Assembly: GCF_965641715.1 (NCBI RefSeq)
Contig: NZ_OZ282453.1
Direction: 5' to 3' (one strand)
DNA: 64,000 nt
Source of the DNA: Escherichia coli
Lineage (GTDB): Bacteria; Pseudomonadota; Gammaproteobacteria; Enterobacterales; Enterobacteriaceae
The notes under the pieces were generated by a model that did no database searches, was not told the origin of the DNA, and worked only from the letters and a program-made list of their open reading frames with translations. A program made the position numbers and the translations under genes. This document shows, one piece after another, positions 7,019 to 9,333 of this stretch. Within the stretch, counting starts at the first letter, position 1; every line of letters starts with the position of its first letter.

Positions 7019-7828
7019 ATGTCGTTTTCCTGTCCACTTTGCCATCAGCCTCTTTCGCGTGAAAAAAACAGCTATATCTGTCCCCAACGACATCAGTTTG
7101 ATATGGCGAAAGAAGGGTATGTCAATCTGCTGCCCGTTCAGCATAAACGGTCTCGTGATCCGGGCGACAGCGCGGAAATGATGCAAGCACGCCGCGCATT
7201 CTTAGATACCGGACATTATCAGCCGCTGCGTGATGCAATTGTCGCCCAACTGCGGGAACGGCTTGATGAAAAGGCCACGGCGGTGCTGGATATTGGCTGT
7301 GGTGAAGGGTATTACACACACGCATTTGCCGATGCGTTGCCCGAAATCACCACGTTTGGTCTGGATGTTTCGAAGGTAGCGATAAAAGCGGCGGCGAAAC
7401 GCTATCCGCAGGTCACTCTTTGTGTCGCTTCCAGCCACCGTTTGCCGTTTTCCGATACCAGTATGGACGCCATAATACGTATTTACGCGCCGTGTAAAGC
7501 AGAAGAATTAGCACGAGTAGTGAAGCCCGGCGGCTGGGTCATTACTGCCACGCCGGGACCGCGACATTTGATGGAGCTGAAGGGGCTGATTTACAATGAA
7601 GTACATCTTCATGCACCTCATGCAGAACAACTGGAAGGTTTTACATTACAGCAGAGTGATGAGTTGTGTTATCCGATGCGTCTTCGCGGTGATGAAGCCG
7701 TCGCATTATTGCAGATGACGCCGTTTGCCTGGCGTGCGAAGCCAGAAGTCTGGCAAACACTGGCAGCAAAAGAAGTGTTCGACTGCCAGACGGACTTTAA
7801 TATTCACCTCTGGCAGCGTTCTTATTAA
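7019..7828 (+). CDS. rlmA: 23S rRNA m1G745 methyltransferase RlmA
   Basis: 269-aa ORF with N-terminal Cys4 zinc ribbon (CPLC...CPQRH) and SAM-binding motif DIGCGEGYY. Confidence 0.9.
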
Positions 7829-8391
7829 CCGTGGAAGTGCGTCCAGAGGATCTGGACGCCGATGCCGATCAGCACCAGCCCGCCGAGAATTTCCGCTTTT
7901 TTCCCAATAATTGAGCCGATAAAGCGACCAACCATCATCCCTAATGTCGACATAATCAAGGTTGCACAACCAATGGCCAATGCGGTCGCGATAATGTTGA
8001 CCTGAAGGAAAGCAAGACCAACACCCACAGCCATGGCATCCAGGCTGGTGGCAATCGCGGTGGTTACCAGTAGCCAGAAACCGTGCCGACGGCGCGGCTC
8101 TTCATCTTCATCATCTGCGCCACGAAAACCCTCAATAATCATTCGCCCGCCGAGGAATATCAGCAGCACAAACGCAATCCAGTGATTCCATTCAAGGACA
8201 AACCGGCTGGCTAACATGCCCATTCCCCAGCCGATCAGCGGTGTCAGGGTTTCGACGGCACCAAAAATAAGGCCGGTTCGCAATGCTTCAGAAAATTTCG
8301 GTTTATGGAGGGTGGCACCTTTACCGATTGATGCAGCAAATGCATCCATCGACATACCAAACGCAAGAAGAACAGTAGCAGTGATATTCAT
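7825..8391 (-). CDS. mntP: Manganese efflux pump MntP
   Basis: 188-aa membrane protein starting [18 protein letters not shown]...; the ORF track extends 81 codons further upstream (to 8634) across the leader and is not part of the gene. Confidence 0.9.
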
Positions 8392-8394
8392 GAC

Positions 8395-8625
8395 AACGTC
8401 CTGACCGGGGTATCCATAAAACACATCATCGCCCCCAGCAAACATGCATACATGAACAACAAGCCGCGATGGTTTTTCGCGTTCATGCAGGCATAGCGAT
8501 TGATGTGCATATGGTCTCGCCTGACTGAAAGTCTTCAGTCCGTACGTGCCACGTTTTGCAACGAGTATGTTGACACGTACATTTCCGGAATCTGGAAATT
8601 GGCTACTCCCCAAATGAGGGCGCAA
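8395..8625 (-). promoter_or_regulatory. mntP 5' leader, probable yybP-ykoY (manganese) riboswitch
   Basis: Long leader upstream of mntP; minus-strand RNA contains GGGGAGUAGCC (8601-8611 on plus strand as GGCTACTCCCC) and GAGACC (8513-8518) consistent with conserved riboswitch elements as I recall them; E. coli mntP is known to carry this riboswitch. Confidence 0.55.
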
Positions 8626-8820
8626 CCTTAACATATTTTGAGAATATAAAACAACTGTTGGAATATATTATTTTATTGCTTTGTTGATAACGATTTTCAT
8701 TTAGATTTATATATCAATGAAACGTTAAAATAAATAACAAATAAGGGAAGAGGTAATATAGCCTAAGCTATGTCTGATTATTAAAAATACACTAAACATA
8801 GCTTTGGCTAAATTAATAAC

Positions 8821-9279
8821 TCATTGAGTTGAAACGAGAAGTTTATAAATTCTTTCCAGATCGTCGATATTTCGAACGCGGATTAACAGCCGACGCTGTT
8901 CTAATTGCATCACCAACACGCCATCTTCCGACAAGTTCATCGCTTTGATTCGGCTATATTCAATCCAGACATTGGCGAAGAAAAAACCTTTTTGTTTAAA
9001 GATGATCTTCGGAACGCGGATCCAGAATATATAAAAACCCATCAGAGCCAGTGCGCTTAATAACCATGTCGTTATTAACGCACCATGATTCGTGACGTTG
9101 TTATAGATAAGAATGACAATCAATCCGACGAAGATAACGCTATCGATGCGACCACGCCGGAGCAAAGGAATTGCCAGCAGGGTGGGGCCGTTACGGCGGG
9201 GCATGATGAACTGATCGTAGATCGCGAAGGCCAGGAGTGCGGCGATGAAAAGAATCAGTACCAGGTCCGTGATTGTCAT
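8821..9279 (-). CDS. yobD: Inner-membrane protein YobD (DUF986)
   Basis: 152-aa hydrophobic ORF in the expected position between mntP and manZ. Confidence 0.8.
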
Positions 9280-9333
9280 TAATCCTCCAGATAAAAAAAC
9301 GGGGCCAAAAGGCCCCGGTAGTGTACAACAGTC

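Follow-up and report, generated by a model that had tools for sequence, protein, structure and literature searches.

Two MntR-type operators and a manganese riboswitch upstream of mntP: a probable two-layer control region in Escherichia coli

Introduction

In Escherichia coli K-12, the gene mntP (yebN) reportedly combines a promoter activated by MntR and by Fur with a riboswitch leader. Arrangements that resemble parts of this one are said to exist elsewhere: Bacillus subtilis MntR reportedly activates the gene mneP through several upstream boxes, and at ftnA silencing by H-NS is said to be reversed in a Fur-dependent manner.

More has been published on mntP itself. MntR activates the gene and Fur also regulates it, with both regulators relieving repression by H-NS (PMC8632737). 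Manganese-dependent expression has been published for the K-12 mntP riboswitch, which acts translationally (PMC12153347), as has Rho termination in the mntP leader. The inputs of MntR, Fur and H-NS to mntP, its Mn2+ riboswitch and its control by Rho are thus all already known.

Here, we describe which motifs make up the mntP upstream region, where they lie, how well they are conserved and how the leader RNA folds, in a 64-kb stretch of E. coli DNA (hereafter, the window). An earlier note on this DNA had picked out a real riboswitch, regulator half-sites and an ORF-caller artefact from the sequence alone; their recovery makes the region a clean positive control. Very probably, the region serves to control the exporter gene mntP by manganese in two layers.

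Results

The yobD–mntP locus

The region of interest, positions 8395–8815 on the minus strand, is the yobD–mntP intergenic region and constitutes the entire upstream region of mntP. Among complete E. coli genomes, 5422 of 5426 carry the segment around it (8300–8900), which is annotated yobD / mntP and is 100% identical to that of strain PapRG-06-5. On the minus strand, the gene order is manZ, yobD, a 429-bp intergenic region, and mntP (Table 1); the end of yobD at 8821, as given in the earlier note, is borne out by the ORF list. The synteny of yobD and mntP is universal in the species set compared. The mntP product belongs to family PF02659 (manganese efflux pump MntP), and a tblastn search with MntP residues 1–188 returned matches in 80 species, the N-termini of which all read MN(I/L/V)(T/S) or MHFT.

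The base composition of the locus is uneven: GC content is 18–30% over 8620–8860 and 43–62% over 8200–8620, while yobD lies mostly at 45–48%, with a dip to 33%.

Several features were observed on the flanks. A strong intrinsic terminator, CCGGGGCC-TTTT-GGCCCCG-T7, follows manZ (~9290–9316, minus strand) only ~10 nt before the yobD ATG, and agrees with a Term-seq 3' end at K-12 position 1904785. Expression of yobD therefore needs either read-through or an unrecognised promoter. At the other end, mntP (minus strand) and rlmA (plus strand) are convergent, and their stop codons overlap by 4 bp (TTAA, 7825–7828); a Term-seq list section places the rlmA 3' end (K-12 1906214) antisense to and inside mntP (Adams et al. 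2021). Downstream of rlmA in related loci, Rfam cspA-thermoregulator matches (~131 bits) were found on the strand of the neighbouring cspC/cspE.

Table 1. Features of the mntP locus and of related loci; positions refer to the window unless a related locus is named
Feature	Position	Strand	Details
yobD (DUF986), upstream neighbour of mntP	8821..9279	-	Stop TGA 8823-8821
Distal MntR-type operator, ATTTAGC-CAAA-GCTATGT	8796..8813	-	Core 8811-8798, centre -187.5
Proximal MntR-type operator, ACATAGC-TTAG-GCTATAT	8756..8773	-	Core 8771-8758, centre -147.5
Fur-box-like element, AAATGAAAATCGTTATCA	8685..8702	-	Centre ~-75
Weak core promoter, TTGTTT-N18-TGtTAAGGT	8625..8654	-	-35 TTGTTT 8654-8649; extended -10 TGtTAAGGT 8633-8625
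Inferred mntP transcription start (+1)	8617	-	Leader 226 nt in this strain
yybP-ykoY Mn2+ riboswitch aptamer, four-way junction	8508..8616	-	Rfam RF00080 and covariation
Aptamer 5' strand and L1, GGGGAGUAG	8611-8603	-	
Aptamer P2	8599-8581	-	
Aptamer P3/L3/P3.1	8580-8542	-	L3 ACAUACU 8570-8564
Aptamer P4	8540-8523	-	
Aptamer 3' strand with GAGACC	8518-8513 (GAGACC)	-	
Expression-platform long helix	8421..8507	-	+111 to +197; in unconstrained and aptamer-enforced folds
Shine-Dalgarno region, CAGGAC	8398..8403	-	7 nt upstream of the mntP AUG
mntP CDS, 188 aa plus stop	7825..8391	-	Start ATG 8391-8389; annotation in K-12 and PapRG-06-5
Spurious 81-codon in-frame extension of mntP	8392..8634	-	Source of the 269-aa ORF
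40-aa uORF	8388-8510	-	Its TGA overlaps the mntP ATG (ATGA)
Leaders below the RF00080 gathering score	Window 8523-8619; L006, L024, L033, L043, L051, L075	- (window)	Rfam 15
cspA-thermoregulator matches	L006 2965-3425; L051 2943-3283; L061 2932-3394	-	Rfam

Two MntR-type operators in the upstream tract

The earlier note had drawn attention to CATAGC/GCTATG elements between yobD and the leader, and had likened them to half-sites of MntR. An MntR motif was read off the promoters of mntH and mntS in K-12. The mntH operator is AACATAGCAAAGGCTATGTT (i.e., AACATAGC-AAAG-GCTATGTT) and the mntS operator is ATATAGCCTGTGCTATAT (i.e., ATATAGC-CTGT-GCTATAT); the dyad common to both, ATAGC-N4-GCTAT, upholds the likeness. 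The window carries two such operators upstream of mntP, which read ACATAGCTTAGGCTATAT and ATTTAGCCAAAGCTATGT. No perfect ATAGCnnnnGCTAT other than the proximal box occurs in the 64-kb window; the distal box departs from the core by one mismatch.

Both boxes are conserved in sequence and in position. Of the 77 species compared, 74 have a proximal box without mismatch, and the box begins 156–161 nt before the G that opens the L1 GGGG of the leader. The distal box, with 0–1 mismatches in 69 of 72 species, lies farther upstream at a box-to-box distance of 40–45 bp (70 of 72 species), and in 69 of 70 its core begins 8–9 nt past the stop codon of yobD. Information content, measured over 77 species, is ~1.6–2.0 bits per position in the half-sites (0.7 at one position of the distal box), as compared with 0.1–0.6 bits for the central N4. 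Conserved half-sites around a free centre are the pattern expected of a dyad to which a dimer would bind. Judging by motif identity and conservation, MntR probably occupies exactly these two boxes.

The free centres revealed a further point of interest. Within a box, the 4-nt centre is not self-complementary (outer pair in 5/70 and 8/70). Between boxes, the distal centre matches the reverse complement of its proximal counterpart at 165 of 280 positions, against 95 ± 8 in shuffles; on the 53 distinct combinations the count is 117 of 212, against 72 ± 6.7 in shuffles, and is the best of 24 registers. Pair counting gives a covariation of 0.170 vs 0.105, with none of 500 shuffles as high and slid controls at or below 0.079, these shuffle controls being of a kind that does not remove relatedness between species. 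About one third of the species have, in addition, a small hairpin in the spacer between the boxes; E. coli is without it. The mirror covariation of the boxes goes beyond what independent dimer binding requires.

The core promoter and a candidate Fur box

The mntP transcription start was placed at 8617 because this is the sole +1 that puts the L1 adenosine at A11 and the L3 adenosine at A48 (numbering of PMC12153347); the position is compatible with the hexamers at 8633–8625 and 8654–8649. A consensus sigma-70 scan did not call the mntP core promoter, and an uncalled, weak promoter fits activator dependence. From the −35 hexamer to +1, spacer included, the bases are almost invariant in 72 species.

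As a separate observation, the conservation of the core promoter (8617–8654) exceeds the need of hexamer recognition alone.

Upstream of the promoter, a Fur-like box at 8685–8699 has two mismatches to the 7-1-7 consensus TGATAATnATTATCA. Sites at this mismatch level number 2 in 64 kb vs 0.31 expected, and 72 Enterobacteriaceae show hardly any variation in this block. Positions 8685–8702 constitute a candidate Fur box.

A four-way-junction aptamer in the mntP leader

On the strength of two motifs, the earlier note had proposed a yybP-ykoY manganese riboswitch in the leader. Both motifs are present on the minus strand (GGGGAGTAGCC at 8611–8601 and GAGACC at 8518–8513), and the identification holds, resting on a match to RF00080, on the scores of orthologous leaders, and on covariation. 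The covariance-model scan proposed in that note gave a mixed outcome: the match on 8523–8619 (minus strand) has a significant E-value (7.7e-9), but its 40.1 bits fall below the gathering score of 45, which is a curation threshold rather than a structural feature. The match ends at 8523, and the 3' strand of P1.1/P1.2, with GAGACC, lies outside it. Orthologous leaders score 41.1–57 bits, 8 of 14 being at or above the gathering score.

Under the Rfam 15 model, the validated Escherichia mntP leader and several orthologues score 40–44 bits, just short of the RF00080 gathering score (Table 1). An experimentally validated E. coli riboswitch, that of mntP, would be missed by a default gathering-threshold scan with this release.

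Covariation was assessed by laying the published four-way-junction architecture onto the E. coli sequence and following it through 72 distinct aligned leaders of Enterobacteriaceae. The junction (P1.1/P1.2, P2, P3/P3.1 and P4) has standard pairs in 96.1% of 2662 cells, and 18 of its 37 pairs are changed on both sides, including all seven in P4. None of 500 shuffles reaches any of the five measures used, and sliding the 3' partners leaves pairing at only 25–44.5%. Of the loops that form the metal site, L1 (GGGGAGUAG) does not vary among the 72 leaders, and L3 (CAACAUAC) is constant except at a single position (97%). The aptamer lies in the 5' UTR directly upstream of mntP, a manganese-homeostasis membrane-protein gene, and its few differences from the K-12 aptamer fall in the P4 loop and in the junction that precedes P2.

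Leader fold and expression platform

Downstream of the aptamer, the long helix of the expression platform agrees with the published 'single helix' of mntP (PMC12153347), and the Shine-Dalgarno region, GUCAGGAC, is conserved among related leaders. In the unconstrained minimum-energy fold of the leader, P1.1, P1.2 and P2 are broken and the 5' strand pairs with ~+204 to +218, beside the Shine-Dalgarno region. Of 77 leaders folded in this way (unconstrained minimum-energy folds), 72 pair their L1 GGGG with bases that lie 3' of the aptamer, and enforcing the aptamer helices costs ~9 kcal/mol. In the published model, P1.1/L1 is invaded at ~205 nt unless Mn2+ is bound (PMC12153347); the competing fold predicted here fits this strand invasion.

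Enforcing the aptamer produced no consistent change in the opening of the Shine-Dalgarno region (mean unpaired probability 0.47 vs 0.51, higher in only 38 of 77 leaders), and published chemical probing saw no clear Mn-dependent change at the ribosome binding site (PMC12153347). The gating step at the ribosome binding site, as it is used below, is taken from the literature model.

The platform also contains a terminator-like hairpin at 8465–8481 (minus strand), consisting of CGCGAAAAACCAUCGCG and then GCUUGUUGUU. It was rejected as a conserved terminator: K-12 substitutions and an indel disrupt the stem.

Alternative readings of the repeat and of the upstream frame

The elements described above as two operators had been presented in the earlier note as one inverted repeat, AAGCTATGT-N22-ACATAGCTT, serving either as a distal MntR site or as the yobD terminator. 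The repeat is indeed present, at 8765–8804, but its geometry was misjudged: it consists of the inner half-sites of two separate operators, and in full it has 20-nt arms (8754–8773 and 8796–8815) that are 90% complementary. A palindrome with a long spacer appears here because tandem near-palindromic operators are automatically complementary to each other. The exact 9+9 repeat occurs once in the 64-kb window and in none of 100 shuffles, as would suit a single unit bound by one regulator; we nevertheless regard such a unit as highly improbable, given that the outer half-sites, TTTAGCC (8812–8806) and GGCTATA (8763–8757), are conserved equally with the inner ones, that each box is by itself a match to the compact operators of mntH and mntS, and that the 22-bp spacer varies in sequence while the distance between the boxes ranges over 40–45 bp. 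A role at the end of yobD, as a terminator or as an mRNA hairpin protecting the 3' end, instead of or alongside MntR binding, is a better candidate, albeit still an unlikely one. The repeat begins 6–9 nt after the yobD stop, at the nearly fixed distance given above; the RNA from 8835 to 8735 folds to −25.6 kcal/mol (z-score −5.1); and the mirror complementarity of the box centres beyond shuffles, together with the spacer hairpin added in about a third of the species, points the same way. Against it, the N4 positions are unpaired in 27–54% of species, and among mismatches G.U is not favoured over A.C. Tandem near-palindromic operators are, moreover, complementary by construction, and that alone suffices to explain the repeat. 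As an intrinsic terminator of yobD, the repeat is not supported: its stem is AU-rich, its loop 14–22 nt, and its tail (CCUCUUCC) is not a U tract; even with the windows set generously, just 24 of 72 species have five or more T in the 8 nt after the stem. A terminator scan made no call at 8750–8820, and in two list sections of the published Term-seq data (Adams et al. 2021) no 3' end falls between K-12 1904785 and 1906214; low yobD expression could hide one. Two MntR-type operators in tandem are therefore the reading of the repeat that we retain. That the operators are, beyond this, the arms of a ~60-bp two-fold-symmetric element in which the symmetry itself is maintained—with N4 centres that co-vary and a palindrome that some lineages extend—is a tentative idea that we consider doubtful.

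The leader raises a comparable question, namely whether the frame that runs through it is coding. The window contains a 269-aa ATG ORF (7825..8634, minus strand) that begins 243 bp upstream of the MntP start (8634–8391), as well as a 40-aa uORF (Table 1). MntP might truly be 269 aa long, or the uORF might be translated and coupled to mntP via ATGA: both ORFs are present in the sequence, the 40-aa ORF is called a hypothetical protein (WP_032224207.1) by PGAP in some genomes, and public protein sets commonly hold N-terminally extended MntP versions of 199, 200, 228 and 239–241 aa. Either possibility is very remote. Among 78 Enterobacteriaceae loci, the mntP frame stays open for anything from 3 to 92 codons ahead of the MntP ATG, the window having the longest such stretch, and in K-12 a 1-nt deletion (AAAA vs AAAAA in the window) breaks the frame of the extension and shifts both frames, such that the K-12 uORF reads as 27 aa. 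Most genera have AGA, AGG or UGG/UGA in place of the uORF's AUG, which lies within the 3' strand of the basal helix of the aptamer. The ATG of the 269-aa ORF, at 8634, lies ahead of the inferred +1 at 8617, and the extension crosses the riboswitch. The earlier note was right to call the extension an artefact, as its non-conserved length, the frame break in K-12 and the position of its ATG all testify: the 269-aa ORF is a real ORF and a spurious gene, a chance open frame through the leader of the 188-aa MntP.

Rfam matches to miRNA precursors on 8744–8825 (mir-282 and others; E 0.03–0.5) were rejected; they lie far under the gathering scores and reflect hairpin potential only.

Discussion

A two-layer model of manganese control

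The features above suggest a model in which manganese would act on mntP at two successive levels. The first layer would consist of (i) two MntR-type operators ~148 and ~188 bp upstream of a weak extended −10 promoter, with centres approximately four helical turns apart, and (ii) the conserved Fur-like box at ~−75, all within a tract of 18–30% GC. At high Mn2+, Mn-MntR (and Fur) would bind this upstream tract and initiation would rise, the activation proceeding, per the literature, via relief of H-NS silencing. The second layer would be provided by the 226-nt 5' UTR, which opens with the yybP-ykoY four-way-junction aptamer. Mn2+ bound between L1 and L3 would keep the 'switch' helix, P1.1, closed. 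In the absence of Mn2+, the 5' strand (L1, P1.1 and P2) would be captured by ~+204 to +218 beside the Shine-Dalgarno region, translation would stay low, and Rho would terminate the untranslated leader.

The locus also illustrates two ways in which such regions can mislead. Tandem near-palindromic operators can mimic one long-spacer palindrome or a hairpin, and extended gene calls arise from open frames across structured leaders.

Were the symmetry of the two boxes maintained in its own right, one of three things could lie behind it: (i) the same DNA could also act in the 3' UTR of yobD, as a hairpin by which the end of the mRNA is defined or protected, (ii) MntR could assemble as a symmetric dimer-of-dimers, or (iii) template-switching at the quasipalindrome could keep the arms alike. 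Synteny cannot separate these three, because the yobD–mntP order is universal and the distance from the distal core to the yobD stop is fixed; an MntP protein search for more distant taxa returned, among the matches listed, only relatives of at least 86% identity.

Comparison with known systems

The mntP leader shares with other members of the RF00080 family—those with crystal structures from L. lactis and X. oryzae, and alx of E. coli—an aptamer in the 5' UTR of a manganese exporter, and differs in its score of 40.1 against a gathering cut-off of 45. Firmicute members use an intrinsic terminator, whereas mntP has a translational platform with Rho involvement. Within E. coli, alx folds as a three-way junction and mntP as a four-way junction (PMC12153347).

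The operators are of the type found at mntH and mntS, with the same 18-bp dyad, A(C/T)ATAGC-N4-GCTAT(G/A)T. Each of those promoters, however, has one box only, placed directly before the annotated mntH start codon or the 5' end of the RybA/mntS RNA, and this box represses according to the literature, while the two boxes of mntP, 148 and 188 bp upstream of the start, would activate. In this respect mntP resembles mneP of B. subtilis, at which several MntR boxes likewise lie upstream of the promoter of a manganese exporter and activation occurs only at high Mn (PMC8632737); mneP differs in that it encodes an exporter of the CDF family and has three boxes, no riboswitch, and a different operator sequence. 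With ftnA, mntP shares a metal regulator that sits far upstream in AT-rich DNA and activates by counter-silencing, a model that has been stated for mntP also (PMC8632737). Unlike at ftnA, MntR is the main regulator at mntP and Fur supplies a further input; the silencing of mntP by H-NS is from the literature.

The mntP (yebN) region of K-12 is the same locus: its sequence is essentially identical over both boxes, the Fur-like box, promoter and aptamer, and the gene order yobD–mntP–rlmA is shared. The differences are at strain level only, namely a few substitutions in the window and one extra A in the expression platform (AAAAA vs AAAA), and it is this extra A that gives rise to the unusually long 269-aa ORF and to the 40-aa uORF of the window.
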